Counted from the first letter of the stretch, positions 26,143 through 63,797 are shown. The stretch: 64,000 nt of DNA from an uncultured virus (IMG/VR IMGVR_UViG_3300024999_000052) (IMGVR_UViG_3300024999_000052), one strand, 5' to 3'. The notes: generated from the sequence alone by a model not told the origin. Numbers and translations are program-made.

Positions 26143-26340
26143 ATGAATGAAGAAATTGACATCCAAATTAGTTTTACTCCTCATCCTTGGGATAATCAAA
26201 AAGAGCCTTATTTCTGGATTATTCTAAAAGGTAATGATTCTAAACATAATGCAGGATGTGGATGGGCAGAAAGTCCTCAGAAAGCATGGAAGAAAGCTAA
26301 CGAATATTATGAGAAGCATGTTAAAAATGTAATGTCATAG
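26143..26340 (+). CDS. Hypothetical protein
   Basis: GGAGG RBS. Confidence 0.65.
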   Translation: MNEEIDIQISFTPHPWDNQKEPYFWIILKGNDSKHNAGCGWAESPQKAWKKANEYYEKHVKNVMS

Positions 26341-26416
26341 AACTATTATTTCATGCAGAATACCATAACCGCAAACCCTTATAATAGTAGGGTTTCAGGG
26401 GTTGACGATTTAGAAA

Positions 26417-26761
26417 ATGAAAGAAGGTAATTTAATGTTAAAAACAAAAATTTCCATAACAAAATGGATTAGAGAAAATTTTATTAATGGAGAACTCCTT
26501 GCTGAGTTTATAGAATTTACGAATTTGCATGAGTTTATTTTAGAAGGAAGAACATTAAAACCAGAATATATGGAAAAATACGAGACTTGGAGAGAAAAGT
26601 ATTTATCAGTTTTTAACAGCATTAAAGACTACCCTGAAATAGAAATAGTCGAACGGTTTGGAAATGAAACTCATAAGACAATGAGAACACCTTTGAATTA
26701 TATGTGGTATATGTATGCAAATGATGCTAAAAAGAGAAATAAACTGTTTAAAACAGCTTAA
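26417..26761 (+). CDS. Hypothetical protein
   Basis: ORF track. Confidence 0.6.
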   Translation: MKEGNLMLKTKISITKWIRENFINGELLAEFIEFTNLHEFILEGRTLKPEYMEKYETWREKYLSVFNSIKDYPEIEIVERFGNETHKTMRTPLNYMWYMYANDAKKRNKLFKTA

Positions 26762-26892
26762 AAAGCAAGGGTTAATAGAGTGAAAATAATTTATTTGTTT
26801 TTATTCTTAGAGTACATTATAATAATTAGTGTATTCTATAGAGTGAAAACTCTAAAATTATAAAAAGAGGAGGGTAGAAAGAAACTTAAATA

Positions 26893-27822
26893 GTGATAAA
26901 TAAAAAGGAGAGATTAAATAATTTGGCAAGTCTAAAACAATTAGAAGCGATAGAAAGATTAAAAAAGGCTAAACTAGAACGTGAACATAAATTAGTTGAT
27001 GGAATAGATTATAAATTCTGTAGTATACATCACACCCATTTCCCAGGTGAAGACATATGGTTTCCTGCTACAACAGAATATTTTTATTACCATAGTAAAA
27101 ATAAGTCAGACTATTTATACCCTTATTGTAAAAGATGTGCAAGTAAAAAAGGAGTACAACAATGGAGAGACGATCCGATTAAACATAGGGAAGCACATAG
27201 AAGATATGAAAAAACTAAAAAATTTAAAATATGGATGCGAAAAAACCAAATGGAATCTGTTGATTATATGGTTCAATATAGAAAAGATAACCCTGAAAAA
27301 ATGAGAGGATATACAAAAAATCATAGAATTCATGATATTACTGAGGCAGAATGGAGAAGATGTTTAAAGATATTTGATTATAGGTGTGCATACTGTGGAA
27401 TAACTCAAGAGGAAAGTTTAAGAATACATAAACAAAAATTGCATAAAGATCATGTAGATTATGAAGGTTATAATGACTTAAGAAATGCTGTGCCAGCATG
27501 TAGGAGTTGTAATAGTAAAAAACATCAATATAATATGGAAACATGGTTCAAGGAAGAAGAATATTTTAATGAAGAAAGTTTGTCTTTTATTTATTGGTGG
27601 ATAATTGAAGGATATAAGGATTATATAGAAGATAAACCTCCTTACAGAATAATTAAAGAAAAGAACAAAGATAATGATAAATTCCATTGGAATTTATGGA
27701 CAGTAAATGAATATAGAAATACCATTGAAATAGTTATTACAAAGAATAAAAAGAAAGAAATAACAATAGAAATAGAGAGAGGGATTTTAAATGAAATATT
27801 AACACTTGAAGTAGCAAAATAA
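26893..27822 (+). CDS. HNH endonuclease (paralog of 59041..59940)
   Basis: CAYCG..HKDHVD..DLRNAVPACRSCNSKK. Confidence 0.85.
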   Translation: MINKKERLNNLASLKQLEAIERLKKAKLEREHKLVDGIDYKFCSIHHTHFPGEDIWFPATTEYFYYHSKNKSDYLYPYCKRCASKKGVQQWRDDPIKHREAHRRYEKTKKFKIWMRKNQMESVDYMVQYRKDNPEKMRGYTKNHRIHDITEAEWRRCLKIFDYRCAYCGITQEESLRIHKQKLHKDHVDYEGYNDLRNAVPACRSCNSKKHQYNMETWFKEEEYFNEESLSFIYWWIIEGYKDYIEDKPPYRIIKEKNKDNDKFHWNLWTVNEYRNTIEIVITKNKKKEITIEIERGILNEILTLEVAK

Positions 27823-27941
27823 TATTAGTTATAAACCTAGACTATTTGTAAAGACTATGATAGTCTAGGTTTATCTTTAAGTTAGCAGGGTTTATAACAA
27901 TCATGCTAGGTGGTATAACAAATAACAGGAGGATGATAAAA

Positions 27942-28400
27942 ATGTCTAAAATAACTTATAAGGACAAATTAACTATAACTCTTGATAAAAATGATATGGT
28001 TCAATCAATTGAATGCACTCTTCCTATTTTGGGAGAAGGTATGGACAGAATAGTATACGAGTTATCAAATGAAAGAGTATTAAAAGTTGCTAAGTCAATC
28101 AGAGCGTCTTGTATTAATTGGGATGAAATTACAATTTTCGAAAATATAAAAGGAAAGGAATGTATTGTTCATTTCCCAATTGTTTATGAGTATGAAGAAA
28201 GTTATGGGTTCTGGTATGTATGCGAAAGGATTACTATGTCTTCTCAAGCTATGACGGAGGTTTTAAAGTTCGTTCCTTGTTTAGACTGCTCAGATAATGC
28301 AGGTTATAACAAAGAGGGTAAATTAACTATTGTAGATGCAGACAGATTAAATTGGACTTGGTTTGTTAGAAGTGAAAATCCATATGCTAAGAATGAATAA
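27942..28400 (+). CDS. Protein-kinase-like fold protein
   Basis: LGEGMDRIVY..VLKVAK..N..E..NAG..IVD. Confidence 0.55.
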   Translation: MSKITYKDKLTITLDKNDMVQSIECTLPILGEGMDRIVYELSNERVLKVAKSIRASCINWDEITIFENIKGKECIVHFPIVYEYEESYGFWYVCERITMSSQAMTEVLKFVPCLDCSDNAGYNKEGKLTIVDADRLNWTWFVRSENPYAKNE

Positions 28401-29448
28401 GTCCTATCAAAAGTAAAGTTTATTGTATTTAAGAAAGGGGTGAACAATATGAATTTAGAATTAACTCAGAAAGAAAATGAAGTTCTTTATAACTTTTTAG
28501 GTAGTCTTAATTATTATGAGATTATGGCTATATTGTGCAAGTCTTATCCTGAGAAAGAATTAGAAGAGGTAAGTGCTATCTTGACTAAGATTACAAGAAA
28601 AGTAGAAATCTAATCTATTTAAAGAAAGGAATGATTTATTATGGCATCTAGACAAATAGCAGAAATCAAAGCATATGAATATGACACTAAAGAAGAAATG
28701 GAAAGAGAAATTTATGCCTTACGTGATTCTAAAGAATGGAAAGTGCAAAATACTTATGAATTGAATGAAAAATGGAGAGCAGAATATTTTAAGATTAATC
28801 TGTGATGTAATTTAAGTTCATATTCGCCATAACAGAGAGTATATAACAGCAAGGGGTATGGCGTTGTGGGCTTATATTATAGCATCGGTTGCTAAAATAA
28901 ATATTAGGAGGAAATTATTATGAAAATACCAAAAGACAATCAATTCACTTATAAAATAAGTGACGGAATGATTAAAGGATATTTTAACATTTATCAAGGT
29001 AGAGGTGGTAAGATATGTTTAAGTATGGGTGAAGCAGTAACTCCTTTATCCAAGGAACAAATTCAAGAATTACACATAGATTGCTATTCTCTTATTGATT
29101 TTGATCATGAATTATATATGAAAGCTTATTTGTAACTTAAAATGTTATTTTTATGTGGGGATAGAAAGGAGAATAAAAATGAAAATCAAACATTCTTGTT
29201 GGTGTTGCCTCCTGCTTAATGCGGATAAAGTTGAATCTAAATTCTGTGTCAAAGGTCACAAACTTAAATTTATCTTCAATATTAATGAATGCTCAGACTG
29301 GGATGGTTAACCACAAAATATCAATAACAGAACTGCCATAACAAATCGACCATTATTTTGGCAGTGAATTATAGAATTTTTATTTATTTTAGCATTGTAT
29401 TGACTTACTTTGTATTTTATTGTATACTGATAATACGGTAGAAAGGAG

Positions 29449-31047: not shown

Positions 31048-33156
31048 AGTAAATGAAAAGTAAGATTTCCTAGTATTTTAATTAAATTTGAAGGGATGGA
31101 TTATAATGAAATCATATTTAATTCAAAGATGTACGACAAAACCCTTTACACAGAAGCAATTCAATTCTATTGATGAGATGCTTGACTATGACTATATGGG
31201 AAGTTCAGAATATGAGTGGGAAGCACTGCCTGCATTAAAGATGCAAACTAAAATTTATCAAGAAGGTATTAAAAAAGGAATATGCAATGTTTACATGAGC
31301 ATTTGTGAATAAATACATTTCTTAAATTAAAACAAATTAAGAAAGAAGGAAGATTAAATATGAAAACTATTGATGAACTAAGCGAAGAATATCGTAGAGC
31401 ATGTAAGCAGGAAATGATGAATGATTTAGTCAAGGAATTCAATCTATTATTAGTTAATGAAAATGTTTCTGGAGAAAAGATAAGTTTGACTTTTCAAATG
31501 TTGATGGATACTATTAAAATTTCTCAGATACAATAAAAACAGTCTTTGAACGTATTATAAATTAAGAAAGAGGATTGAACGAAATGAAAAGAATTCCTTA
31601 CTCATTTAGCAAACGAGGAGATATAATTAACTATCCTAGCATAAATCAAATTGTTTGGTATCGTGACGATGCCAAGCCTGATATGAGATTAGTGATTATC
31701 AATAAGATAAATCGCAATTATTACAGCGATGGAGGAGATCAATGGGAATGGCAAGAAGTATTTAAGGATGGCACTTTAGGAAGAGAAGAAAGTGGAAGAG
31801 ATAATTTTTATTTATATTATGGTGGATATAAGGTTTTCAAAACTGTAGAATTTAATTAATATTAAGAGAGGATTTGATATTAATGTACAAAGAAAACGAT
31901 AAAGTTATGGTTACATGTAAAGAGATTAGCAATAAAGATGAGTTGGCCTATATTGCTTCTAAAACTCCTTATGGTGCTTATGAAGTAACACTATTGATGG
32001 ATCATAAGCCTAGCAGTGGATTTGATCCTGTTAGAGTTTTTGGCATAGAACAAATGCGTTTCGCTACTGAACAGGAAGTAATAAATAACGTAAAAGAATG
32101 GGAAGAAAAACATAATTATAAATTAGGAGGAATGATATAAGATGGCACATTGTTACACAAAACATGTTGAATGTCCAGATATTAGTTGTTCTGAATGTGA
32201 TATTAAAGTAAGAAAGGAAATGATTAATATAGATACTGAATCAATTGACGATTTGCAGGGATTTAAGAAATGGGGAGATAACTATGTTTGGTTTAGTAAG
32301 AAAACAAAAAATACTTAATCAGATTGCCTATATTGATTGTAACATTGACAAATGGAAAGATATTTGGAAAGATGCTAAAGATGAAAATGTTAGGGTCACA
32401 GTATTAAACACACTAGACAATATTCATAACTTAGTTTTAGAAACTGCAAGATATATAGATAAGGCTTAAATTTATAAACCTATTATAAAAAGTATTTTGA
32501 AGGAGGATTTTAAAATGAAAACATTTTACGCAATGATTATTGTTTTGTATTTAGGTGTTAGTTTGTTTATGTTTTCTATGTATCAATTTGTTCATCAGGT
32601 ATTTGGATATCATGGTTATATTCATCTTATTATATTTACGGTGTATACTTTAGTAAACATAGTTATTTTAATTGGATATACAATGGGAGTAAAAAGGGAT
32701 ATACAAACACCTATGAATTAATAATACTTGAAGTTAAATAAAGGAGGAAATAATTATGAATGATTGTTTTACTTGCGAATATGCAGATAGGGATAAGCAT
32801 AATAGATTTATTGACAGATGTTCTGGATTTGGTAACTGTAGTTATGTAGAATTTAAAGGAGAAATTAAACCTACATTAGCAGAAATTATTAAAAATCTTA
32901 GTAAAAATTTAAACAAAACTAATAAAGATTATACTCAAGGTTTTAATGATGCATTGGAATTTATTAAAACTTGGGACGAAGATGAATAAATTGAAAGGAT
33001 GTGTGACAATGAGCAAACTAAAAGAAATCAATATAGATTTAAATAAAATTATTAATATTAAGTTAAGGATGTGGTGATATACATGATTGTGAGATATTAA
33101 GGTTAATTTACATAAATAATAATAAAATAAAAATAATAAAGGATGGTAATGTATTA

Positions 33157-34118: not shown

Positions 34119-34319
34119 ATAAAATAATTACATAAAAAGCAGGACTTAAAACCTCCTGCTTTATTTCCACAAACTCCCATAAAAACGCAAATTGATTATA
34201 AAATCAAATATAATATTTTTATTTTACCTCATTTAGTATTGCATTACTAAATCCCAGATGATATAATATATCCAAGAGGTAAAAACAAACCAGTAGAAAG
34301 CAGGTGAACATATCAAACT

Positions 34320-34586: not shown

Positions 34587-36823
34587 AAAGGATGATTGAG
34601 ATGAGAAATCTAATTATTGGCGATAATGTTAAAATTACTTTGGATTCATTTGATGGATTACTTTTAAAAAATACAGGAGTCTATAAAGGCAAAAATGACA
34701 AATTTAACGGAATGGGCAATGTGGAAATTGACGGCCAGATTTTTAATATTCCATTAGGAAACCTTACTTTAATGAACAACACAACTCTTGATGAATTAAT
34801 TGAAGCAATGGAGGAAAGTGAGGAGTTTAAAAACAATGTTGAAAAACTACTCAGGGGTTATCAAGCGTATAAGAAAGTATATCTAAAGTGATGAATTGAA
34901 AGGAAGATTAAAATGTTAAATCCAATTCAAACATTAAGAGAAGGAACTGAAGAAATTCTTCTTCAGCAGATGAGCTGAAATCTATAATCAGAAAATACAT
35001 GTCTGATATGACTCGTAAAATGTATAGGTGTGTTGATTCTCAAAAACTTATTGATTATATATGCAAGAGAACCGAAAGTTTAGTAACTAAAGGTGATATA
35101 TTTTTTACACTAATTAATTTAGAGGAATTGAAAGGAGCAATTTAGAATGCGTAGTGATTATTTAGAAAAGAAATTACTGAAAAACATAGAGGATCGTCTC
35201 GCTATTTTAAAGATTAAGCTAAATAATGATACTGATACCGTATTAAGTAATTTTGGAGATATTGCTCATGAATTCAGTAGACTTGAATCTACTATATCTA
35301 GTTATGAATCTGAAAAGAGATTAAAAGTTCATGAAAGAATACATGAATTAAGCAAATAGCTTAAAAGTCTAAATTCATATAGTGTGTGAAAGGATGATGA
35401 AAAATGTTATTCAAAGAATATACCGCAAAACAAAAGGTATTTTGGATTGGATTTTGGATAATTAGTCTTGGAATTGGGGTCGTTATTGGTAAATTGACTT
35501 AATCAAAATTAGGTAATTGACTTGACAAAGGGCAAGCAATTTAAAGGAGTAAAATTATGAAACCTATTCAAATGCAAACTGTTAGATCATTGGTTTTTAA
35601 ATCGGAAGAAACTATTGACACTCATTCCCTTGAAATTACCGCTATATTTAATGAGACAAAAATCAAAGTTAAAACCAATAAAGGTGAATATATTGGAGAA
35701 GTTATTAAAAATCTAATGTATGGACATGGATTTGGTTTTAAAACTGAATTTGGTAAACTAGATATTCTCTTTGAAGACATTGAAGAAATATTCTATTATG
35801 TAGGTTAACAAATGAAAGGATGGTTTTAATTAATGAAAAGTTATTCTGTAGAGATTAAATTTGAAAAAGAAAAACATTGTTTAAGATGTCCACTGAGAGA
35901 TTATGTAACTGATATGTGCGATCTTCAAAAGGATGGAGATAATTGTTATATTGAATTTAAAGATTGGGAAGAGCAAATGAAAAATTGTCCATTGATAGAA
36001 TTATATTAAGTTTAAATACCATGATTTTAAAGAAATAGGTAAAAGGAGTTTGATTTTATTATGGAAAAGATCAAAGAAATTACTCAAGAACAATTAGATT
36101 TATTTAGGGTATCTAAAAATCAGAGAAAAATGTTTAAGGAAATAATTGGCCTTGATATCAAAGCAAAATATGAAGTAGGGGACACAGTAGTTAAAATTGA
36201 TAAACCAAAGTCTCTAGATGTTTATAAAAATACATGGAATAATATAGACATTTATTATATTGTAATTGAATCTATTGTTGAAGATTTAGCATTAGTTTAT
36301 AGTTTATATCCAGTGAATTAAAATTGGTACGATCAAAATACTATTGTATGATATTTGAAAGGAGTGAACTTTTTGACTAATAAAGATAAACCTATAAAAA
36401 TACAGTGGAATGAATATGCAAGAGGATTTTACTGTCCGAGTTGTTTTACAGGTACAGCAAGCGAGCGATACAGAACAATGTAAATATTGCGGTCAAAAAT
36501 TATTACCAATGTATAATTTCAAATAACTAGATTAAACCTAAATTTACAGGACAGAAGGAGTTGGCGATATGCGTAAAGAAGACTTAGAAAAATTGTTAAA
36601 TGGAGAATCAGTGAAAGTTGGTAAAAATCAAATATATTTAGATGGTGATGATTACTTTATAGTTGAGAAATATGACCACACTGAAAACAAAGTAGAATTT
36701 TTTAATGTATTCGAAGGTTATAGAAGTATTGAACTTGCAATTAAAATAGCAAAAGAGATTTGAAATTCGAACCTAAAATCTAAAATTTATTTAAGCTCTA
36801 AGGAGCAGAAAGAGGTTGTAATA

Positions 36824-37788: not shown

Positions 37789-37869
37789 ACCAATACCATC
37801 AAAGCACGATTTTAAAGTATCGTAGACTGACTCAACAGAGGGTGAGCAGTTAAAAAGGAGTTAATTCAA

Positions 37870-38370
37870 ATGGGAATAAGTACATGCGGAGCATTAAAAA
37901 GAGAAGTAACAGCTAAAGAAGTTTTTTATTTTGTTACAACAAATTTTGATCAAAATGCCAAATTAAAACAAAATTCAACCAATTCTCATCACATTAATTT
38001 GAATTATCTAGGCGAAACTAGATCACTTCATGTTTACTATGGTAATGATTACAGAGAAGAGACAGATGGATATAGTGCAAATAACGAAATTACTGAGATT
38101 AGTGTTAATAAATGGGGGCACGCTGAACAAATTATTGAACCAATTGTAAAACATTTTGGAGGTTGGTATATGGCTGATGATTGCATTAGTAATCGTGAAG
38201 AACATGTTATCTTTTATGAGTTTAATGTAAATCCTGACATAATTACAACTACGCCAATTGAAAGATATGTTTTTGATAAGTTAGAAGAAGATAAAGATTG
38301 GAAATCAAAAATTAAATTGGCACAATTTATTAAAGACAATTTGGACGAGATTAAAACCTTCAAAAGATAG
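37870..38370 (+). CDS. Hypothetical protein
   Basis: AAGGAG RBS, 166 aa. Confidence 0.7.
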   Translation: MGISTCGALKREVTAKEVFYFVTTNFDQNAKLKQNSTNSHHINLNYLGETRSLHVYYGNDYREETDGYSANNEITEISVNKWGHAEQIIEPIVKHFGGWYMADDCISNREEHVIFYEFNVNPDIITTTPIERYVFDKLEEDKDWKSKIKLAQFIKDNLDEIKTFKR

Positions 38371-39541
38371 AATTGAATGGATTTTTATGAAGGAGGCAAA
38401 CATAAATGTTTGAAAATGGTCAAAGAGTAATGTTAAAAACCTATGAGGAGTTAGCCGAACAATTTGGAGTTGGTGGAGAGGATGATTTATATGACATAAT
38501 GACAGATCCACCGATACCCGTTGAAATGGACATTTATCTAGGTACAGAGGTAACTATCAGAGAGAAAAGCGAAAATTATGATGCTTATCTTATTGAAGAA
38601 GACGAAGAGGGATGGGCGTTTCCATCAGTAGCATTTGTAAATGAAGAATAGAAATTTTTAGGAGGAAATTGTAATGAAAGAAGGATTAGAAAGATTTATC
38701 AAGGATAATCATCCAAATATATTAAGAGAATATCAACAATTTTTAAGAAAGGATGTTATTCCTAAAGTTGGTACTACTGTTGAATTAAGGAAAAAAGGAC
38801 ATTGTGGACGATCTATCGGAAGCGTAGTCAAGATAAGAGAAGTTATCTTGACTGGTTGGAACCATATTGTGCTTGATAGCGATTATGGTAAAGGTTTAGG
38901 GTCTGGTGTGCCAATTGAAGGTTGGTGGAAAGAGATATTTATCGTTCATGAAATACTTTGAAACAGGAATTTCAAAAAAGTTAGACAATTGTAAAATTTG
39001 ATAGGAAGTGTGATTATGAAAAGAATAATACCGTTTAAAAATATGCCCAATGATATATTGGAAAAATGTTATCATCAATATATACAAATGGAAATCAAAA
39101 GAGATATTCAGAACATTGAACAAGAACCATTATTATCAACATTAGTGCATTACAAAAAAGATATTGGAGAAAAATGGGCTTATGCAATAATGACACAAGA
39201 ATTATTAATGGAAATAGCTAAAAGATGGATTAATAGAGACAAGATGTTTGAATTTTAAATGGTATATTTGTATATCGAAGTCGCTTGAAAGACTCATTTG
39301 ATGTTATAAGAAAGGAGATTATTAAATGAGATTTTATGAATTTGAACAAAAGAAACCAAAAAATAACAAGGATGTTCTAATTCAATTTAAAGAATATGGT
39401 TGGGGAACTGGTAACACTCTTGATACAGTCTGTGCTAAATTCATAAATGATAAATGCTTTATATTTCCTACTATTTTAGAGATAGAAATGTCTTTAGATA
39501 GAATAGTTCGATGGAGTTATATTTAGAAAGGATGATTTAAA

Positions 39542-40791: not shown

Positions 40792-43286
40792 AAAGGATGT
40801 TAATTAATTGAATATGTCTTGCTTTTTTGGATTTCATGATTGGAAATATGATACTTATGGATGTGTCAGTAACGGAAGCGAAGTATATAAACTTTATCGC
40901 TGTACAAAATGTCCAATGGTAAAAGAAGTTGATACTAGGCCAGGGTTAACAAATGGATCATACAAAACATATCATAAAAATAAACCAAGATAGAATACTT
41001 ATTTCCTAGTATTTATAAAACGAGAAAGAAGGAATTAAAAATGAAAATTAATTATGTGTTTGAAGGAAATAAAGTTATTAAGACTATTGAAACTGAACTT
41101 GGTGAAAAAGAAATTAATTTACTAAGAGAAATATACCATAGAAACAAAGTTGACATTACATGTTGTCCCAGAACCGATGAGGAAAGGGAATTAGATATAA
41201 GTGTTTCTATCCTTAAGAAATGTGATTTAGTAAAAGACCAATTTGGGATAGATGAATACACTATGACCGACTTAGGTGCTAAATTTATTGAGAAATACGA
41301 TAATATCACATGGGATTTCCTCCCAAACAAATAACAATTCTATTAGAAAGGAGAATCTAAATGAAAATTAGATACACTTCAGATGAATCAGGTTGTTTTG
41401 GAGAAACTAATGAAGTAGTAAACATCCCTAATGAATTATTAACTGATAAAACCCAAGATGGAATTAATCAAATTCTAAAACATTTTATTTCTAGTTTTGG
41501 CTGTAGTCAATGTGTTGATTATGAGAAAGTGAGCGAAGAAACTATTACGACAATGGAAAGTTATTATGACGATATGTGGGGAGAAATTTTAATCAGTTTG
41601 AATCCTAAGAATTAACTATTATATTAAGAAAGTGAGTAAAATTAAAATGATTCATACATCAAGTATGATTGAAGTTTTCCAAGAATCCGAAGGAGAATGG
41701 GTAGCAAAAACCCATATTACATTTTTTAGTTTAAAAGGTAAACAAAATGAAGTATGTGGAGACGTATCAACTTATTGCTCTTTTAATACAATCACAAAAG
41801 CAATAGATACATTATTTGAAACTTTAAATGAATCAGGAGTAATATTAAGGGATAAATTTACTTTAGCTTATACTTATATGGGAATTAAAGATCAAAATAA
41901 TCCACCTGTGAGTAAAAATTGGAAAGAAATTATTATTAGTGAAACTGAGTCTAGAGGTTGGGAAGCCTTTGTAGAGGAATAAAAATATGAAAAGAGGAAT
42001 TTATATTGAAAGACAAATATGATAAACAAGATTGGATTTTGGAGTATTTAAAAAGCAACAATCATGTAGATATCTTAAATGTAAAATTTGTTGATGCATA
42101 TATAGAAAAATTTAACGTAAAATATGCTATTCAACCATATGGAGCAAACTCTTGTAAAGAGTTAGGAATACTATTAAGTCAAATGTATCACTGTAATTTA
42201 TTAGAAAGGTTTAGAATTGGATTACGAGGTTGTGATGTTAGTATGCCAAAATGGTGTTATTGTTATGAATTGAAAAAGTATTGATTTGAATGAGATTACA
42301 ATATAACATGAAAATTGCATTTTAATTGAATGGTTAAATTTAAAATAAAGAAAGAAGGATTAAATTATGTATAATTACGGAGAATTATTAATCAAAGCAA
42401 AAGAAAGTAATATGTATTCAAAAGAAGAATGGTTTAAAATATTTGGTGCATTACTAAATGTTAAAAACAAAGAACAATTTGACATGGATTGGGAATATTC
42501 TAAATGTAAAATGTCTAAAGAATTGAAATTAAAAACAAATAGGGAAATTATTTTAGATTATTGTGCTAATGTTCAAACTGGTGACATAGATCATCTTCAA
42601 AAATGTATTGATGCTCATGATGCTCTAAATAACACTAGTTTAGATCATAAAGAACTTTCAAATCGTTTAGATGGTTCTTGCCCTTCTTCTATGGGTTTAG
42701 ATAATCATATTGGTCTTTGTTATGGAACCGCAAATAATAATCTTTCGAATCAAAATAAATATGATTTGTGCAAGAGATGTTGGGAAGATGCCCTAAAGAT
42801 AAATCATGAAGATTAAAGTAATCCGCAATTGCAAATCATGTTTATATCATTACTGGAAAGAACTTGAAGATGATCAATGCTATGAAAAAGGTGGTTGTCT
42901 TCAATTTTCTCCAGTAGGATTAAGATTAGAAGATGTAGAAGTTATCATAGAAACTTTGTCAGATAAACCCAAACATTCACTTGCAATAATATATGATCTG
43001 TGATATATTAAATACAGAAATAAATTTATATCAGGAGGTACATAAAAATGGCATCAACCGCCAGAGGATTACACATTTCCGCTATCAATGCACTTTTAGT
43101 AAAACATGGTGCAACTCTTGACAAATATGGTATGTATCATATTGGAAATTACAAATTTGATACTAGAGCAGTAAATTTAAAAATCCATCATGGTAAAATT
43201 AAAATCAAATCAGTTCCAATGATGAAAGTTACTTTAGAATCATTAGAAAGATCATTAAAAATTTATGTAAAGGAGAGTGAAAGCTG

Positions 43287-45472: not shown

Positions 45473-45601
45473 ATGAAAAACATGAAAAGAAAACTCTTAA
45501 TCGCTCTTCTAATCGTCTTATCTGTTGTGGTGTACGTTAGTGTCAATGATGATAGTAAAGAAGCTTACAGGTCAAATACGGGGCTTACAGTGAAGATTTA
45601 A
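45473..45601 (+). CDS. Small secreted/membrane peptide (42 aa)
   Basis: AAGGAG RBS; MKNMKRKLLIALLIVLSVVVYVSVNDDSKEAYRSNTGLTVKI. Confidence 0.6.
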   Translation: MKNMKRKLLIALLIVLSVVVYVSVNDDSKEAYRSNTGLTVKI

Positions 45602-45609: not shown

Positions 45610-46185
45610 ATGGTGATTGTTTTGGAATTAGTTCAACCAATACGTAGCAAAGAAAAAATTGAACAAATGAAGAAATATCTAAAATCAAAATCTCTTAGAG
45701 ATTGGGCTTTATTCACATTGGGTATTAATTCAGGATTAAGAATTAGTGATTTGCTTAAACTTAATATATCAGATGTAGTAGACGCAAATGGAAAAGTTAG
45801 AGACAGAATAACGGTTCGAGAAAAGAAAACTTCCAAACCAAAAACATTTCCTTTTAGTGCAAAAGTAATAGAATCTTTAACAGAATATATTGCTTCTCTA
45901 GATCCATCTCAGACAGTTTTATTTGGGTCTAGGATAGGTGATAAAGCAGTCACAAGGCAACATATACACAGAATACTTAGTGAGGCTGGTAAAGAGGTAG
46001 GTATAAAAGAATCCATAGCTTCGCATTCCCTCAGAAAAACTTTTGGATTCATGGCATATGAAGCTGGAGTAGACATCACCAGAATTCAGCAATTGCTTAA
46101 TCACTCTTCACCAAAGGAAACTTTAAGATATATCGGAGTCACACAAGATGAGTTAGATAATGTGTATTTAGAATTGAATTTGTAA
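45610..46185 (+). CDS. Tyrosine recombinase (catalytic domain only)
   Basis: GLRISDLL, EKKT, HSLRKTFG, LLNHSS..TLRYIG: intact R-K-H-R-H-Y. Confidence 0.92.
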   Translation: MVIVLELVQPIRSKEKIEQMKKYLKSKSLRDWALFTLGINSGLRISDLLKLNISDVVDANGKVRDRITVREKKTSKPKTFPFSAKVIESLTEYIASLDPSQTVLFGSRIGDKAVTRQHIHRILSEAGKEVGIKESIASHSLRKTFGFMAYEAGVDITRIQQLLNHSSPKETLRYIGVTQDELDNVYLELNL

Positions 46186-47132: not shown

Positions 47133-49139
47133 AACCTGTACCAGAAAATGTTGATTTTATTTGAGAAGAAAGAAGTTGATATATAAATGATTTCCAAAGA
47201 AGAGTTTTTAAAGAATTGGGATGCTAAAATTAATGAGGATGGAATTATACTTCCAAAAGATACTTGTTTTGTATTCCTTGCTTCAGAATATTGTAATAAC
47301 CTTAAATTAGATATTGACAATAAGGAAAGAGAATCAATTCAAAACTTTGGTTATTGGCTTGAAGGAATGTTTGAAGTTTGTGACGGAGCAAAAGGGCGAT
47401 CAAATTATAGTTGTCAAGATAGGACATAAGAAGGAGAGATATTAATGAAAGATATTATTATTGGAATTAAGAAAAGTAAAAGTTGTTCCGCAGTAGTTTA
47501 TTATCAATATTCAGAAGTTCAAAATATTATAAGTCACAATTCTGAATTATATTGGTGTCGTGAAAATTTTACTGGAACAACAATATTTATTCTCAAAAAT
47601 ACAAATGAAGGGGAAGCATTAACCGCATTACTCCATTGTAAAAGTCCTGTTGAGTGTATAGAAAATTTTCTACTTAATATTACATTAAATAATATGAATA
47701 TTTCTGACTTAAGGGATTTGATGGAGAATTTAAGTGAAAAGTATTTTGAACGTGGAGTAAGATTTAATCAACAACAATTAAGAATGGTTATGGGATATTA
47801 ATCCTAGCAAACTTAGCGTTTATCTTATATAAAGGAGGAATGATTTTATGGTTTCAGAAGGATTTATAGTAGGAATTGACTGCAAGGTGAAAGAATTATC
47901 AGAAAAAATTGAAGAAATTTTATTCATATGTGAAAAAAGATTGAAAGATTTAGGATGCAAAGATAAAGAGGATTTAATTTTCCCTTCTAATATTTATTAT
48001 AGAAATGATGAATTATATGCTATTTGTGATATTTGGATTAAAAAATATTGGGATGAAATAAATTATATGGAGGAAACTAATAATGTTAAGTGAAAATCAA
48101 TCACACCAATGCAATGATTATACTATATATTTTAGTCTTTCAAGAGGTTGGGAACTATATAATATTTACAATGATTTTGTGATGAGAAATATTAGTTATT
48201 GTCCGTTTTGTGGTGAAAAGTTATAAAAGATTATTTAGGAAGAAGGTAATTAAAATGATTAAAATTGAAAAGATTACAGAAGATAATTTTGAGATTCTTG
48301 TTTGTGAAAAGTTAAAAGGTATTTTAGACAGAGATGAACTATTAACATTAATGAGGGACATAGCTTATGAATTAGATTATGAGGTAAGGAGTAAGTGGTA
48401 ATTATGATTAAATGTGAAAGATTTATAGTCTTTAGAAATAATGTAAAATCAATTATTGCAGTATATATTAAATGTAATTTATTTACAAGAATATTTTACC
48501 TTGACAAAGAAGTTGAATGGGTTGCAGGGCCAGTTTATGATAATGAATTGAATAAAAGAAAAGTTGAGATGAAATTGTTTAATGATGATACAAAATATGA
48601 GTTTCTAATGGATGCAGTAGAGTGGGAAGAAGTTAAAACTTATAAAGATCAGATCAATGAGTTTTTGAAAGGATGATTGATTAAATTATGCGTGAACTAG
48701 ATAATCTTATCAACCTAATCACTGAAATCAATAGTGATCTATATTTATCTTATCAAGAGAGAAAAGAAAAATTAAAAGAACTTAATTTAACTTATGAAGA
48801 AATGGAATCTATTTTAATGTCTGCATGTGAAGTATGGATTAGTATAAAGGAGGAAAATTAAATGTTTTATGTATATAATATTTGTATGAAAAATAGCAAA
48901 GAATATAAAACTGAACTTACAATAAAACTTGATGAATTAATTAAAGAACTTATGCCAAAAGATCCATACGAAATAAAAATATTTCACCTTAATATATTTG
49001 ATGGAAATGGTCAAAGTGCAGCTATAGTTGGTAGCGAAGTATCGAGTGTTGAATACTTTGTTGAAACAAGACCTAACTCTTGGGATTAAATATTTATCCA
49101 ACCAAACTGCGATTTTAAATTAAAAAGGAGTAATGAAAA

Positions 49140-49730: not shown

Positions 49731-51223
49731 AGTGTACCATCAAACAGCAATTTTAAATGAGGAAAGGAGAAAATAAATGCAATTAATATCTAAAACTGAA
49801 GACAATGAGAAAACAATTAAATTCACAGTTGATGAATATGAACATTTATTAAAAATCTTAGACCTATGTACTCCTCCAGAACATCGTAATTATTTGTTTA
49901 AAGTTATGGCAGAAATGTTTAATGATTTATATGATATGGATTTATTATAATTGAAAGGAGATATTAAATGATATATCAACTAAAAGCATATTATGGTGCG
50001 TCAATAAACGGGAAGGTTATATATTCTGCTGAATTAACTTTTAATGATTGTACAAAACTATTAACTAAACCTTTAGACAGTAATTCGCTCAAAGATCATA
50101 TAACTAATAAAATTATTGCCGATAGATTTAATCCTGATAATTTTATTTTCGGTTGGCTTACTAAAGAACAGTATGAGAATAAAATTGAATCAAAAGTGGA
50201 TGAGAAAATAGAAGTAAAGGGTAATTAAAAAGTCAGTTTGATGGGAGGATTTTAAAACAATGACTGAAACAGAATTATTAATCCAAGAAACTATCATTTA
50301 TCTACTAGATTTTTCATTTAGTTTTAGACATTGCGAGAAAAGCTATCAGGGAATTAAAATGGTTGCAATTTAGATCAAAATTAGTTACTTGTAAGGAAAG
50401 GAAGAGATAAAATGATAGCTGTAAAAATGAAAATATCAAGACATCAAATTAGTCATGTTTATTATGTTGGAGATGCCGAGAAGTTTATTAATTCACCTAT
50501 TGTTATTAATGGCAATGCAGTAGGAGTTATAACCAAGGCAACAGATAGCGATGAAGAATATTACATTGATGTTGAGGGATATTTATGGATGGCATGAGCA
50601 AGTTACTTGCAAGATGGTAATGAATTAATACCTGCCGATATCACAATTAAGTAACTACTAGCAAATCCACTTTGAAAGGATATGATTTTTGTGGAAGATT
50701 TAGAAACAAAAGTACAAAAAAGAATTGATGATATAAATTTTGACATGTTTTGTGATATAATTGACAAATTACAAGTCTATGGAGTTAATTTATATAATGG
50801 TAAAGGCGAATGGGATTTTAATCAGTTTAGAAATAGTTGTAAAAAGACTTTTGGACTATTGTTTAAAAATGATGAACCACATCCAGAAACAGGTATTAAA
50901 TATCAATTATGTGATTTTATGAGTGCAGTTCAGGCAATTGTAGGAATAAGAAATATTACAGAATTTATGTATAGATGAATGAAATCTTATGTTAGGTATT
51001 TAAGAAAGAAATTATATAAAATAATCATAATTTAACATAAATACAAAATATACCAACCCTACAACCCTACTCCCATGCGACTTTCAAAACCATAATTTCC
51101 CATAAAATTTACATTTTAATGGATGCGGGGGATATTTTTATAAACTGTAAAATAAATGTTTGCAATTTTATTTAGTGTATGGTATAATTAACACAAAGTA
51201 ATAAAAAGAAAGAGGTTTTAATT

Positions 51224-54596: not shown

Positions 54597-56487
54597 TTAT
54601 TCTTTAATTAATTTTTTCTATATAAAATAAATAAAGGAGGAGATTAAATGTTAGGAATTAAAAGAAAATATATAAACATTAAATGGTCTGTAATGCAAAT
54701 TACTAACAATGAAATAAATGCTAGTCATGTATATTGTATGAAAGAAAAATGGGATATATTTAGGAGTGATTGGGGTCAGGGATTTGACTCAGACTGTTTT
54801 GGTCATTGTAGTGAATTTAATAAATGTAGAGACGCTTTCTATGATAAAAAATATCATGGAGAGAATCATATGAAATTAATTATTGTTCCATTTGATAAAG
54901 TTGATTGGCATGATGATGAGATTAGGATTGTGGAGGATAAATAAATGACCAAAAACATACAATCATACACAAGAAAACAATATATCAAAAACATAATCGA
55001 CAAAATTATTACCAAAACACTAGACATAATTCTCTATCCATTACGCCTAGCTTATTCAAAATATGATGGCTCAAATTTACAAAAGAAAAGATTAATTAAA
55101 ACAATATATAAGAAAATAATGAGTAATATTTATAATGAATTATTATGTGAAGATGAAATTTATATAACTGATTTTAAAGTAGATCAAGGTTATATGCGTT
55201 CGAATATTATATCTATGGGACAGGGAACATATCAATTGCAATATCATACAAATAAATCTGCTGAGATAATATTTAATGAAATAAAGGATATTTTAAGGGC
55301 AGATGATAGTTTAGTGGTTGAGAGTATTGGTGTTAGAGATGTGTTTAAGTATGGATGTCATAAGGAAGATGGTAGAGTCATTAAGGTTTATATTGTTGAT
55401 AAGGAGATAAATAAATAAATGAAAACAATAATCAAAGGTAAAAACATGAAAAATAAATATGAACGCGATAATAATGATCATTTTTATCTTGTTAGAAATT
55501 TTCTTAGGGAATCAGATCCAATTACAGATACTCAAGAAAAGTTACATCATCTTAGTTTTACTAACATAAAAGCAATACCTGAATTTATTTCTTATGAGAC
55601 ATACGCTACTTTGCAAGATGTTGGTTATAGATTAAATATTGGAGAGGAATATGAGGGAAACGTTATTGAAAATGTTGAAGGGACTGAGGATGGAGATATT
55701 GTTTATTATACTGATAAAATTATAAATGTTGATGAGAATTTAGAAGAAAAGAAAGAATTTAGTGATAGGTTAAATGAAACTATCCAATATTATGATAATG
55801 AATTAAAGAAATTAATAGAAGAGATGGATAAAAAGAAATGGTATCAATTTTGGAAGTGAATAACATTGAATGGTATTTTTTAAACGAAATTCACAGGTTG
55901 AAAATAGGAGTGATATTTTGAGTTACATATATGACGAAAAAGAAATAAAAACAAAAGAAGATGCAATTAACTCATTAGAAGAAATTAATGCTTATCGTTA
56001 ACTTGAGGGAATTTCATTTGATTTTGGAAATGGGTTAATTCAAAATGAATTATCTTATGGCACAGAAGAAGCATATTGGGAAATGGATATTCAAGATTTA
56101 GAAGATATAATTGAAGATTGGGAAGAAGATATTGAATGGGAAAACTGGTTGAAATCTCAATCAAAAAATAAACATAAGAAGAAAAGACCAAATAGGTATT
56201 ATAGAAAAACAATTGATAAGAGAAAATTGGAGAAATTAGCTAAAATTTTATGGTGGACAGTAGGATACAATGACGGAGAAAAAAGATATATTCGTTATTA
56301 TATTAGTGGAAGAAAAGGTTTTGCAAAATGGTGTTCTAGGCGAGCTGTAAGGAATAGAAAAGATTTTTCATTAATAGGAACTGGCTATAGGAAATGTTTT
56401 AATTATTGGTATACTGTGTTTTAGAATTACCCTAGCAAATGTATGTTTTGATGTTATATGAAAGAAAATTAAGAGGAGGTAGTTAAA

Positions 56488-57373: not shown

Positions 57374-58587
57374 ATACATAAATAATATATAATTATTGAC
57401 ACTGAGGCTGATTAGTTATATAATGTGGTTAATCAGTTCTCAGTAATAATCCCATAAATGAATCGTTTGAAAGGAGTGTTGTTAATGGATAAATGGGAAG
57501 TACTTAAAGAACAGTTGGAGAAAATCGGTAGAACTCAAACCGTATTCGTTGGTCATGTCTTAATGATGATGGAAGTTTTAGAGAAGAATCCAGATTGGGA
57601 TTTAAAACGTGATGGTATGAAAGCGGAGATGTTTGAGCAATAATGAAAAGAAGCATCGAATGGCAGAATACTCGAAATGCTAATTATATCTATATTCGTA
57701 ACCGAATATCAAATATTTCTCCAGGAATTGTAAGTAAATTAGGATACAATGAATCAGATAGGGTAATTATAGGATTCTCAGATGATAGAAAATTATTATA
57801 TATCAAGAAACAAGATAATGGTTTGAAACTGTCTGTAATCCATAAAAATTGTTATGGAAGAACTTTTAGCTCTATTGCTCTTATTAAGAATTTTGGTGAT
57901 ATTATTGGTACTTATGAATTTGATAGTATTGATGATGAGGGTGTAGTTATATTAAGGAAAGTATGAGGAGTGAAAGTTTAAAATGACAAGAGAAGATTCT
58001 TTAAGAATTTTAGATAAATGTATCGAAGAATTAAATAATATGAGTCAAAAGGAATTTGATAAAAGAATGTTACAACAAGGTTCATTTTTTGATGAATATT
58101 CATATGAAGATAATGGTTTTTGCTTGGTATTGTCTGATGGTAGGCGCATATGATTTATCAAATTAGTTGGATAGAACATGCTATTGTGCGTCTTAGAGAA
58201 GACAATGAGAAGGTTAGTAGTGTAAATGGTGATATGACTATTGAGGATTTTATTAGAGAGTTTTGTGGTGAAGAATTGTATAAGGTAATTAAATACTAGA
58301 GAATGATGAATTAGATAACAAGTGAATTATTTGAAGTAAATGTATTTTGTGATATAGTTGAATGTATAAGAATAGAAAGGTAGGTTTTTAACAATGACTA
58401 ACAATGAAGCTCAATCTTATGCTGATGTAGCACTATACAATTTAATTAAAGTAGGAGTAGTTAAAGTTAAAAACAAGAAGGAAATTTTAAATAAACTAGA
58501 CAGAGAAATGTATTACTTAATGGACAATTATTCAGAAGATGAAATAGTTGAGAAAATGGAAAGAATTATGATTAAGGAGGAAGAATA

Positions 58588-59940: not shown

Positions 59941-60795
59941 AGCAATTTCCTATAAGTCAAAAGATTTAATGGATGAGAAAGGTGAGTTTTGGTGAAGAAA
60001 ATACCTGAGACTCAAGAAGAATGGATTAAATATGGGAATATTAAAGCCGGAGCAAAGAAAAGAATAATTCCAGTAGTTGAAATTCCATTAGAAGATATTG
60101 CTATAATGTGGAGTTATGAGTATCAAGCAAAGTATATTGATGTAAATGATGGAATATTGCAATGTATATTAGCTTCTAATTCATTAATCAGTCTTAAAAA
60201 AGAAGTGAAAAGGAGAAAATGGGTTTTAGCTTGGTTGACTACATCTAATGGAGCATTTTCGTATGGGCAAGAAGTGGTGGATGAATATCCTTATTGCCCT
60301 AAATACAGATAGTTTGAAAGTAGAGACTTATGGGAAAGGAGGATCTAAATGATAAAGAAAATAAATGAACTATGTGAAGCATTAGGATTAGAAAAAGTAC
60401 AAACTACCTGTCCTAAATGTGCTAATAGTTATATTAGTCTATATAAGTTAGTTGACGAAACTTGTCATACAAAACTTATTGCATGTTACTGTAATAAATG
60501 TAATTATGAATGGGTTGCTGAAGATTTACGATAATTTTAAGGTTTTAAACTAATGGAGGTGTTTTTAAGATGGAAAAATATAATATCAATATGACAATTG
60601 AAGTTAATGACGGAATAGAATTTGATAAAAAGTTTATTGAATTTCTTGAAACCAATACTAAAAATTATGAATTAGAATTAAAGAGAATTTATACTAAAGA
60701 AGAAGAAGAAATTATTAAAGGTTTAATTAGTATAGCAATTATAAAATAATTCCGTGGAAATAGATATTAGATGGGAATTTGAAAGGATGATTAAA

Positions 60796-61338
60796 ATGCG
60801 AGGTAGTGACAAAGATATCAGTATATTTGTAAGTTTAATATTGAGGCATAAACCAGAGGTAATTGGATTGAAGTTAGATACTTATGGGTATATCAATGTA
60901 AACGAATTGTTAGAGGGTATAAATAAAACTGGTCGATTTATAGATATTAAGCTATTACAAAAGATAGTGACAGAAGACAATAAACAACGATATAAATTTA
61001 ATGAGGATTGTACAAAAATTAGAGCCAATCAAGGTCATTCAATAAAAGTGAATTTAGAATTAGAAGATAAAATTCCACCAGATGTATTGTATCATGGTAC
61101 AGCATCAAGGTTTACAGGTAAAATACTTAGAGAAGGTATTTTAAAACAATCTAGGGAGTATGTTCATCTATCTAGTAATATTGACACAGCTATTTCAGTC
61201 GGAAAGAGACATGGAAATCCAATAATATTAAAAGTAAATGCCAAACAAATGAATACAGATGGTTTCAAATTCAAATTATCGGATAATAATGTATGGCTTA
61301 CAGATATTGTTCCAATTAAATATATTGTAATAATGTAA
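60796..61338 (+). CDS. kptA: RNA 2'-phosphotransferase Tpt1/KptA
   Basis: SLILRHKP, KQRY, IRANQGHS, LYHGT, REYVHLS, VGKRHG, NNVWLT. Confidence 0.93.
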   Translation: MRGSDKDISIFVSLILRHKPEVIGLKLDTYGYINVNELLEGINKTGRFIDIKLLQKIVTEDNKQRYKFNEDCTKIRANQGHSIKVNLELEDKIPPDVLYHGTASRFTGKILREGILKQSREYVHLSSNIDTAISVGKRHGNPIILKVNAKQMNTDGFKFKLSDNNVWLTDIVPIKYIVIM

Positions 61339-61387
61339 AATTAACATAGTTATTCAAACACGCAATTTAAAGAAAGGTGGATACAAA

Positions 61388-61777: not shown

Positions 61778-62662
61778 TATAATCACTTCAATCAATCATT
61801 TAAAATTATGAAAGAAGGAATTAATTATGATATGTTTAAAGAAAAAACAATTGATTGCTAATATGAAAAAATCTACTCATAGAACTTGATTATAAAATTT
61901 CTAAGATGAAGGATAGATTAGTATTTTCCTATATGTTTAATACGGCATGGAATAAAGATGCTATTAAAAAACAAGAAACTGAATTAGAAGATTTAGAAGA
62001 CAAAAGACGTAGATTAATAAAAATTTAATCATCTTTTCACTGGTAAAACCTAGTATTTTTAGATATAATGGAGCATGAGAGATGTTAACGAGGTGAAAAT
62101 CATGCAAGATATTATTAATACAATTAAAATATCAACTAATCCCAATGAAGTAAAACAAATCCTAAAACCATTGAAAATCAAGGATGTGATCAATGTTGCA
62201 AAAGCTTTGGATGTTTATATCAGAGGGAATGAGAACAAAACTGAGATTATTGGTAATATTATTTTAGGGATTATAAAATATAAGAGGAGTGATTAAAATG
62301 GGAGTACAACGCAAAGGTTGCTACATGTTAATTAATTCAAAATGTACTAGAATTAATGGTTGTTGGATGCAGAAAGGATTTGGTGAATATTAATGCAGAC
62401 AGAAGTAAAAGTTCTTCTCACAAATGAATCTGGTCAATGGTTATGGGTGGTGCAGGATCTTGAGACAAAAGAATTATTAAAAGAATTTTATACTTATCCA
62501 GAGGCAGAAAAATATTGTAATGACAATGGATATGAGATTAAACTTTTTGGTAAGAAAACTGTGTACACTAAACGTAAAAATAAAATTTATTAAAGTAGTT
62601 GACGTATAGAACATAGATATGATAGAATATGGTAGAGGAAATTTGAGAGGTGCGGAGATAAA

Positions 62663-62890
62663 ATGGATTTAAATACAATCAGTAATCTAATGGATGAAGA
62701 ATTAAAAATATGTTTTGATGAAATAGTTGATTATAGGAAGAAAGGAATTATGTCGGTGAATACTTTGACGAGAAAAGTAAGAAGTAATCTCGCAAAAGAA
62801 ATTGGAAAAATAGATTGGGATCTAGGATGTGACTCAACTAGCAATTATATTATGTTTGAAATTGCTAAAAGACATTACGGAGCATCTTAG
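62663..62890 (+). CDS. Hypothetical protein (family with 19750 and 38998)
   Basis: DEELKICFDE..IMFEIAKRHY; promoter at 62599. Confidence 0.65.
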   Translation: MDLNTISNLMDEELKICFDEIVDYRKKGIMSVNTLTRKVRSNLAKEIGKIDWDLGCDSTSNYIMFEIAKRHYGAS

Positions 62891-62904
62891 AATTAAATAT
62901 CAGA

Positions 62905-63057
62905 TTTGCCCAAATTACCTGTGCTGAGATGCGAAAGGTAAGCTAATCTTATAAGTGACTAATATAAGATAGTTGAAGTGTAATGGCAAACGTCCTAATT
63001 TGGCAACTGGGTTAGGATGAAGACGCTCCTTCCCCAAGGAAATGAACTTAGGGGATT
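62905..63057 (+). ncRNA. Candidate structured RNA / cis-regulatory element
   Basis: TTTGCC/GGCAAA, TTACCT/AGGTAA, ATCTTATA/TATAAGAT, CGTCCTAAT/GTTAGGATG, TCCCC/GGGGA stems in a GC-richer intergenic region. Confidence 0.45.
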
Positions 63058-63085
63058 TTATTGAAAATTTGAAAGGATGATTTAA

Positions 63086-63442
63086 ATGAAAGTTTTAGCA
63101 TTAAAACGTATTGGAGAAGATTCACATGGTAATGGAAAATATACTCTTGAATATCAAGAAAATAATACAAAAAATGAAAACAATTATGTTGAAAATCAAG
63201 TAGATGGTTATCCTGTTTATTTTAATTATAAAGGATTTACATTTGATGATCCAATTATTACGGAAGCTTTAACTAATTATTTTGATAAACAATCTCATAG
63301 TGATGATATTATTTCTTTTGAAAAACTTAAGGAAATGTTTGATGTGCATATGGAATTAAGGGATACTAATACAATTACTAAAATTAAGCGTATTTGTATT
63401 GAATACGCCATCCAAAAGTTAAAAGAAATTGATTTTGAGTAA
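63086..63442 (+). CDS. Hypothetical protein
   Basis: AAGGA RBS, 118 aa. Confidence 0.65.
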   Translation: MKVLALKRIGEDSHGNGKYTLEYQENNTKNENNYVENQVDGYPVYFNYKGFTFDDPIITEALTNYFDKQSHSDDIISFEKLKEMFDVHMELRDTNTITKIKRICIEYAIQKLKEIDFE

Positions 63443-63797
63443 AACTGCAAATCCTGAAACCATTGCTATATAAGGGTTTCAGGATACATAATATGGTTTA
63501 AAAGACGTATTTTATAAGGAGAGGATGGAAAATTAAAATTAAAAATGAAACATCTAAACAGACACATTTATGTTGTATTTCTTGTTTATGTAATTCATGT
63601 TCTATTATACATTGTATTGATTGTCCATGTGGAGAATGTGAGAGAATTCCAAATGAGTTCTGTAAATTTCATAGAACAGGAAAAGAGATTACATTCCATT
63701 CTAAGAATTAGTTAAGGGATAAGTTGTTTTACGCCATTAATTAAGTTAAACGATAAAAATTAAGATTCGAATGCTTTTAGAAAGAAGGATGAATAAA

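Follow-up and report, generated by a model that had tools for sequence, protein, structure and literature searches.

The window analysed here comprises 64,000 nucleotides, read on one strand, from an uncultured virus (IMG/VR IMGVR_UViG_3300024999_000052) and covers the early region, with its small genes, of a large AT-rich phage. Between its genes lie repeated dyads of two inverted 11-bp arms around a 6-bp centre, which we call joints. It is rather probable, on comparison of related sequences, that these sites are centre-matched crossover joints where related phage genomes swap blocks of genes.

The virus records G001 (150 kb), G003 (181 kb), G004 and G005 and the locus L001 served as relatives. 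G004 and G005 are identical over their overlap and together close into a circle of 268 kb, named G45. A further 41 metagenome loci carrying the recombinase discussed below were considered, and after removal of duplicates, unrelated and short loci 34 relatives were used in all. Gene calls were made with our own simple caller. Judged by its genes, the phage clade is an SPbeta-like group, because the long relatives encode homologues of SPbeta YonO, YonF, YonJ, YonN, YopQ and YopR/MrpR; the YonO RNA polymerase, the YonF terminase, the YonN HU protein and the YopQ-YopR pair are present in G001, G003 and G45, and these genes are sited outside the window. The closest named homologues of the recombinase belong to Desulfosporosinus and its kin, and a host of the same family is suggested. 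Of the sequencing runs listed as containing the sequence, the best are from groundwater, and no RNA run is among them.

A 28-bp dyad between genes

The first-pass annotation of this DNA had listed 25 copies of a 16-bp quasi-palindrome with a fixed 6-bp spacer, and all 25 are present where it placed them. Compared with shuffled intergenic DNA between 26 and 64 kb, a spacer of 6 is indeed enriched: with it, [TG]AAAA-N-TTT[TG]A is found 7 times, where the shuffles predict 0.9, and at the ten other lengths 0–2 times. Looser patterns are weaker (AAA-N-TTT gives a z of 2.1 at spacer 6 and of 2.9 at 7). A matrix of the arms was trained on shared sites of the relatives alone, with the window excluded. 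At a score of at least 11 it recovers 17 intergenic sites in the window with a spacer of 6, 4 at 5, 5 at 7 and 0–2 elsewhere, and no site with spacer 6 within the coding DNA of the window. Looking for shared 12-mers without any model gave too much noise (spacer-6 sites, the top length, made up 23 of 330 islands, versus 14 each at 5 and 7), and an Rfam search of the window gave no match.

That these are chance matches in AT-rich intergenic DNA is extremely improbable. The GC content of about 29%, a strict 16-mer that barely exceeds its control in this clade (7/4, 10/3 and 9/8) and about 5 weak sites among the 25 speak for chance; the spacer peak, the absence from genes and the sharing and order of centres described below speak against it, and for the 31 supported sites it is already refuted.

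The motif is real, but it is longer than the 16-bp form noted at first and reaches further left, to 13299. From 218 sites at 41 addresses, that is, positions defined by their centre, the conserved unit is an 11-6-11 dyad of 28 bp, approximately ATCCnWTRAAA-N6-TTTYAWnGGAT. Conservation is strongest at the inner bases, and the symmetry extends to 11 bp, with C at positions -3 and -2 (57% and 63%) mirrored by G at 20 and 19 (55% and 46%). The 34 strict sites of SPbeta likewise reach about 11 bp, with a different outer arm. This anatomy fits the inverted 11–13-bp arms and 6–8-bp centre of tyrosine-recombinase core sites of the dif/lox class, as had been supposed. The centres are GC-richer, as first described (0.37 versus about 0.29 for the window). 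Placement just after a stop codon applies to part of the sites, 14 of the 31 supported ones overlapping or abutting a stop codon; a strong site is present at 22 of the 93 window junctions.

Fifteen of the 25 listed sites have the same centre at a site in at least 2 of the 34 relatives, a recurrence that a random centre attains 8% of the time. For four sites a single relative has the centre, and for six none does. Among the four, 31534 and 61354 are in matching place, 36532 is non-syntenic and 52830 has poor arms. Two of the six, 28408 and 56436, were one base off register (28407 and 56435), 31055 has good arms alone, and 36014, 36774 and 50660 are weak. Thirteen supported sites had been overlooked, four of them left of the range then covered. 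In the following, each joint is given by its centre and its 28-bp coordinates, then by the coordinate of its 16-bp core, and sites added here are marked as new.

The four leftmost joints, all new, are ATCCAT (13293..13320; 13299), which scores 21.6 and recurs in G003 and G45 between unrelated flanks, AAGACA (16520..16547; 16526), found in 3 relatives, and CTTACA (22087..22114; 22093) and CAATAA (24248..24275; 24254), both with partners in G003 and G45. CTATTA (26332..26359; 26338) has weak arms, a syntenic partner in G003 and one non-syntenic match. The register-corrected AGTAAA (28401..28428; 28407) scores 15.3 versus -1.1 and corresponds to G003 73090. At TGTTAT (29132..29159; 29138) the left flank alone is common with G001, the right alone with G45 and neither with G003. 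GTAAGA (31049..31076; 31055) is a probable joint judged by its arms alone (score 11.1), with no partner found. At ACAGTC (31528..31555; 31534) the homology to G003 begins at the left arm and continues rightward, and the new TGACGA (32235..32262; 32241) marks the start of a block 95% identical with G001.

Further right, ACGCAA (34174..34201; 34180) is shared with 2 relatives (G003 80517), GTCTAA (35356..35383; 35362) with 5, the new GGATGG (35807..35834; 35813) with 2 and the new, weak-armed ATACTA (36327..36354; 36333) with 5. GCACGA (37793..37820; 37799) recurs in 6 relatives, and GATAGA (38355..38382; 38361), a new joint which overlaps the stop of the gene at 37870-38370, in 5. The new CAGGAA (38953..38980; 38959) has partners in 4 relatives, GACTCA (39280..39307; 39286) in 8, TACTTA (40985..41012; 40991) in 8 with unrelated flanks in all, and TAACAA (41321..41348; 41327) in 6. 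ATTGCA (42303..42330; 42309) is found in 22 of the 34 relatives, in 20 of them with both flanks unrelated. Beyond the recombinase gene lie TGTTGA (47138..47165; 47144) with 10 relatives, CTTAGC (47801..47828; 47807; new) with 9, CTGCGA (49096..49123; 49102) and CAGCAA (49734..49761; 49740) with 8 each, AGTCAG (50220..50247; 50226) with 3 and TTTACA (51097..51124; 51103), which has the best arm score (24.8), with 3.

Many relatives are short contigs, and zero partners to the right of about 52 kb is weak evidence. Two probable joints of this part are without partner, TGTATG (56429..56456; 56435; score 11.9) and the new GAATCG (57449..57476), the latter recognised by its arms alone (score 17.6). 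The new CAAAAG (59947..59974; 59953) and TAGATA (60750..60777; 60756) correspond in order to G001 95785 and 96571. CACGCA (61348..61375; 61354), with weak outer arms, has its partner at G45 66187 and a one-mismatch counterpart, AACGCA, in G001 and G003. GACGTA (63493..63520; 63499) is shared with G001, G003 and G45, and the new ATTAAG (63748..63775; 63754) with G001 and G003.

Shared addresses and proposed gene exchange

Strong sites of six phage pairs have 8, 14, 10, 28, 13 and 18 exact centres in common, where 0.6–1.4 are expected, and pairs of centres with one mismatch are not in excess (3, 8, 12, 13, 17 and 29 versus 8.6–24.7 expected). In each of the six pairs the shared centres are collinear, and the order of the window is followed by 114 of 115 centre matches from 24 loci. 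Around the partner matches both flanks are unrelated in 122 of 145 cases and one flank is common in 22, an unrelated flank being defined by an alignment-score threshold with which old homology is compatible. The arms of same-address pairs are 30–95% identical per position. An identical 40-bp flank predicts an identical centre on the left in 83 of 102 cases and on the right in 28 of 29. The window, G001 and G003 have no repeated centre, and G45 has one such pair; as 0.1–0.8 are expected by chance, uniqueness alone is weak evidence. In one locus (L165) the GCACGA centre is fused directly to the right flank of the following joint, which amounts to a precise loss or gain of one block. SPbeta and phi3Ts have 29 centres in common.

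An earlier test of centre sharing had yielded 52 of 168 versus 11.0 expected; 15 of the 52 are off-register duplicates, which leaves 37, and the null derives from the count of 52. The spacer-length control on centre sharing is confounded by register shifts in A/T runs at 5 and 7. The notion that a centre travels with its downstream gene was dropped, because both flanks usually differ.

Sites of this kind might instead serve to bind a regulator or a nucleoid protein; they would be passed on vertically, with selection preserving them as the genes around them turn over by unrelated routes. SPbeta-like phages do possess a recombinase-fold repressor acting on scattered intergenic sites, MrpR/SroF with its operator SPBRE (PMC10516654; 10.1101/2025.11.27.690993). 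Homologues are present in G001, G003 and G45, the joints are placed between stop codon and ribosome-binding site, and the breakpoint enrichment given below is modest. A binding site should, however, keep its contacted arms and let the spacer drift, whereas here the centres are exact without an excess of single mismatches and the arms vary. The box of SroF is a 26-mer that lacks palindromic symmetry and is occupied by a monomer (10.1101/2025.11.27.690993), and the catalytically dead MrpR repressor occupies about 9 peaks (PMC10516654), compared with 34 strict sites in SPbeta. We consider this explanation decidedly unlikely.

Joints do lie where related phages carry different genes, as had been proposed, but most gene turnover is also found at siteless junctions. 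Of 75 site junctions, 6 keep their two genes adjacent in any of the relatives, compared with 57 of 266 siteless ones (p 0.004). Between SPbeta and phi3Ts, 7 of the 22 ends of exact blocks of at least 500 bp are within 30 bp of a site, against a background of 2%. After yosA, TATTCC (SPbeta 116415, phi3Ts 107397) is the only site common to these two phages. Dragos et al. reported a single non-homologous crossover after yosA (10.1101/2020.05.06.055103), which would map to the region of the TATTCC joint. The blocks between supported sites hold 1–17 genes, and some contain sigma-A-like promoters (one, at 29400, was computed, the others were read by eye), in contrast to the promoterless cassettes of 1–3 genes proposed at first. 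In 28–47.9 kb the counts of promoters and terminators are at shuffle level (116 versus 128 and 5 versus 4.3, respectively), and the listed terminators lie away from the joints. Most single-gene turnover within blocks would be by other routes. Contigs of four DNA runs aligned to 31300-51299 show many joins and loose ends; among those listed, a few are near sites (31526, 42303, 42311 and 42330) and most are not, and these contigs were not used as evidence.

Several observations weigh against block exchange at matched centres. Siteless junctions are mostly broken too (mean 0.905), and a site is present at only about 22% of junctions. When close relatives are compared, sites show no enrichment for the ends of strict-identity blocks (7 of 44 gene-edge ends versus a background of 19%, in a test biased toward gene edges). 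The only resolvable parent switch of the laboratory hybrids (39 bp, in Hyb3) is without a site, the remaining switches fall inside identical blocks of 1.4–18 kb, and no resolvable crossover was found at a site in Hyb1-3 and PP526179; two-base switches in these hybrids look like differences from the reference sequence. Some syntenic centres are one base apart (ACAGTC/ACAGTA and CACGCA/AACGCA), and the threshold definition of unrelated flanks belongs here as well. Many of the relatives are drawn from few groundwater data sets and hence are not independent. Finally, of the protein clusters present in at least 6 of 12 genomes profiled, none is specific to carriers of the motif, and Sundance has YopP-like and MrpR genes and no strict sites. 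Sundance (L116-L122) and PMBT24 (L130-L134), both SPbeta-related and without the strict motif, have CGAT-N6 (6 copies) and TGAAA-N4 (7 copies) as their top dyads, which are perhaps variant joints.

Some of these points suit a different mechanism, in which a dimeric phage protein on the arms would nick or stall the DNA, RecA or a phage annealase would complete the exchange through the 16–28-bp match, and the addresses would be kept as the sole homology. Such protein-marked hot spots would explain the identity and order of addresses equally well; the 39-bp siteless crossover indicates that recombination through short homology is functional in this group of phages, a Sak4-like annealase is encoded by SPbeta, and the 12 genomes have no dedicated recombinase tracking the motif. 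On the other hand, arms that differ between partners while the centres are exact are the reverse of what plain homology needs, and the fixed 6-bp spacer, together with an accessory dyad at recombinase-site spacing, points to a tyrosine-recombinase synapse. Hot spots of this type appear rather unlikely.

The recombinase at 45610 and neighbouring features

A tyrosine recombinase of 191 aa, consisting of the catalytic domain only, is encoded at 45610..46185 on the + strand (PF00589, phrog_216; YoeC-like by the name given in one source). Its residues R44, K73, H139, R142, H165 and Y174 are all intact, and its position is fixed across five long relatives. According to a family search, a Pfam scan and six-frame searches with YopP-like and YomM-like hidden Markov models (HMMs), this type is the only intact tyrosine recombinase in G45, G001 and G003. 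Directly upstream, in all five phages compared, lies a 42-aa open reading frame (ORF; 45473..45601, + strand) with a signal-like hydrophobic N-terminus and a conserved C-terminus. It has no family match in NCBIfam or PHROGs and presumably resembles a secreted signalling-peptide precursor.

The recombinase family has a site unlike the joints, GAATGTWACACA-N7-TGTGTWACATTC, which is found at 20 of 25 loci of close homologues, mostly just upstream of the gene. The window contains it exactly once, as the 12-7-12 dyad GAATGTGACACA-ATGGGAA-TGTGTAACATTC at 3113..3143 (23 of 24 positions match), and one strong copy each is present in G45, with the same centre, in G001 and in G003. The 3113 site is located in the gap between two divergently transcribed arms, 42 kb from the gene of its likely recombinase; in chromosomal homologues the site adjoins the gene. 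This dyad is likely the own (resolution) site of the 45610 recombinase, and the protein most likely resolves genome dimers there. G45 has ParM-like and relaxase-type genes, and a Pfam scan of 144 of its ORFs found no serine integrase; five ORFs of at least 170 aa across locus borders were covered by the six-frame HMM search instead. Such a gene content would suit a plasmid-like prophage in need of dimer resolution. In G005, MazF-like and AgrB genes precede the YopQ-YopR pair (L037:14240-19129), and a cluster of ParM-like, M23, TraG-like ATPase and relaxase genes occurs with a second DndB-like gene (L033-L034); a conjugative plasmid-like prophage with agr-type signalling is suggested.

An accessory dyad of the type AAACCCTT..AAGGGTTT is present in 44 of 353 distinct left flanks of joints and in 3 of 357 right flanks, and its distance from the core centre peaks at 38.5 bp (12 matches). 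In the window it accompanies three joints: 51103, where the element at 51062..51084 to the left is common to joints of other centres, 63499, with AAACCATT..AAGGGTTT at 63457..63479 to the left, and 26338, with AAACCCT..AGGGTTT at 26373..26395, 38.5 bp to the right of the core. The 3113 site shares it at a like distance: a dyad of CCTTGATATAAG type at 3078..3100 has its centre about 39 bp left of the core, and family loci have like spacing. SPbeta has one dyad of accessory type (L058 68512-68551, record coordinates), annotated as a stem-loop and apart from any TAAAA core, and E3 has one near the genome start.

In the first-pass annotation the 45610 recombinase was taken as the possible agent that excises, inserts and reorders cassettes within one genome, in the manner of an integron. 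Its full catalytic set, its uniqueness in the closed G45, its fixed position, the accessory dyad common to its site and some joints, and the precise loss of a block between unlike centres in L165 are all in keeping with that model. Nevertheless, we regard it as very unlikely. Gain, loss and shuffling of single cassettes agree neither with the fixed order and the lack of repeated centres in the window nor with multi-gene blocks, and the site of the recombinase family is a different dyad, present once per genome. SPbeta, with its 34 strict joints, and phi3Ts, Tsamsa, E3, Perkons and BUCT082 (17–37 strict sites among the six) have no match to the 45610 protein; FADO and phiCD211 have weak matches (E 3e-4 and 6e-5). 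Lietuvens and PfEFR-4 possess the family and 0–2 sites, and the chromosomal loci of recombinase homologues show no joint arrays. The protein is also below integron-integrase cut-offs (54.9 bits versus 265 for TIGR02249 and 31 versus 435 for NF011946).

Other enzymes were considered. Neither YopP nor YomM was detected by six-frame HMM search in the closed G45, and they are not required in this clade, because G45 has 60 strong sites. MrpR homologues occur in the motif carriers G001, G003 and G45 and in Sundance, and H-x-x-R is absent in all nine that were aligned. In the host-genus genomes the joint consensus matched 12 of 31, which is the control level, and 0 of 10 loci had a recombinase gene nearby, host dif itself not being part of this comparison. 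A host recombinase and an unrecognised phage protein appear to be equally plausible candidates, each somewhat short of an even chance, and the 45610 protein acting on a second type of site seems possible, if less so.

The remaining features of the window are described here briefly. Intergenic ATAACA on the + strand is found 23 times in 16000-30000 versus 5 and 3 times in the flanking regions, in or beside the loop of post-stop hairpins; 8 of the 12 that were folded have a z below -2.5, none matched Rfam, and they are possibly RNA-processing or RNA-binding-protein sites. Single genes, each with promoter-like and terminator-like sequence as judged by eye, occupy 4192-16500 and resemble a host-takeover module. 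On the - strand, at 347-1829, a radical SAM gene adjoins a class II tRNA-synthetase-like gene. Two HNH genes, at 26893-27822 and 59041-59940, belong to the SPbeta YoqL family, of which the relatives have 2–4 paralogues at other positions. The cargo includes a gp17-type superinfection exclusion gene (36824-37144), a HicA-like toxin (45134-45361) with no antitoxin family match beside it, a Tpt1/KptA RNA 2'-phosphotransferase (60754-61338) and a protein with a GmrSD N-terminal domain (16953-18272).

Proposed centre-matched exchange and comparison with known systems

Exchange at matched centres could proceed as follows. A dimeric protein of tyrosine-recombinase type would bind the arms and exchange strands across the 6-bp centre. 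Since this exchange needs identical centres, a joint would recombine solely with the joint of identical address in a related phage or prophage present in the same cell; the excess of exact centres and the lack of a one-mismatch excess have the pattern of such a requirement. A single crossover would give a hybrid genome and two crossovers would replace the gene block between two addresses, while the uniqueness of each centre would guard against self-deletion. On rare occasions, unlike centres may undergo exchange and so drop or add a block, as in L165.

More tentatively, and with slightly less than even confidence, we propose that SPbeta-like phages of Bacilli and Clostridia in general possess a genome-wide address system, with 30–60 sites of common arms and private 6-bp centres, at which co-infecting relatives would swap blocks in register and be spared self-deletion, possibly with use of the accessory dyad 39 bp away. 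As this clade is without YopP and YomM and SPbeta is without the short recombinase, the enzyme would be a host protein or an unrecognised phage protein.

How mosaic phage genomes joined at gene edges arise has long been asked, and illegitimate recombination combined with selection is the customary answer; the joints offer a concrete alternative that can be tested in a tractable model. New findings are the site in its full 28-bp form, the accessory dyad, the separate single site of the short recombinase, and a clade whose sites are degenerate and which has neither YopP nor YomM. If exchange is site-specific, this phage group has a built-in system for swapping small early genes, the usual place of anti-defence and host-takeover functions, and dozens of natural orthogonal centres would be available for engineering. 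The address system, if true, would be a novel mechanism behind phage mosaicism and would provide a library of orthogonal recombination sites ready for use. No description of the joint motif was found in the literature searched, whose coverage left out most subscription journals.

The attC sites of integrons are long and folding, in contrast to the 28-bp joints. Integrons, including phage-borne ones (PMC9892861), resemble the joints in having short sites between small accessory genes in one orientation; the joints differ in the lack of an integron integrase at the NCBIfam cut-off, in the absence of reordering and in multi-gene blocks with promoters of their own. The analogy to Tn916 drawn at first does not hold either. 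A/T tracts around a variable 6-bp crossover region are a common trait, but the targets of Tn1549 are described as TTTT-n6-AAAA, the opposite orientation, and its integrase bypasses homology (PMC5871717), whereas the centres of joints are matched. The PeSL cassettes of T4-type phages are likewise repeated intergenic elements that mediate modular exchange in hypervariable regions; they are reported as promoter and terminator repeats which recombine mutually and form mini-circles (PMC2839356), unlike 28-bp dyads with unique centres.

The sites difH of XerH and difSL of XerS have 10–11-bp arms that end in GAAAA, with a TTTT-type partner (PMC5357621, PMC5241119, PMC1914069). The specific contacts of XerH are with the inner 5 bp, the centre being hardly touched (PMC5241119), and difH has a 6-bp centre like the joints, its inner 5 bp carrying most information. 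These systems have one site per chromosome beside the recombinase gene and serve dimer resolution, whereas 30–60 joints are present per genome, with no adjacent gene and other outer arms. The pdif/dif modules of Acinetobacter plasmids, which depend on XerC/XerD, share with the joints the arrangement of many core sites bounding accessory modules on one mobile replicon, and recombination between pdif sites of different replicons has been observed (PMC6449649). The pdif sites are described as resembling host dif, with two unlike arms and modules in varied contexts (PMC6449649), in contrast to the symmetric arms, unique centres and fixed order of the joints. For the joints, the host-genus consensus search gave control-level matches and no link to host Xer.

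In engineered cassette exchange with heterospecific lox or FRT sites, unlike centres block self-deletion and permit the ordered exchange of a block between two molecules. Those systems are engineered, with 2–3 addresses and a known enzyme, and the joints are natural, with more than 40 addresses. On this comparison, the closest functional counterparts of the joints would be pdif modules or heterospecific lox sites of engineered systems.

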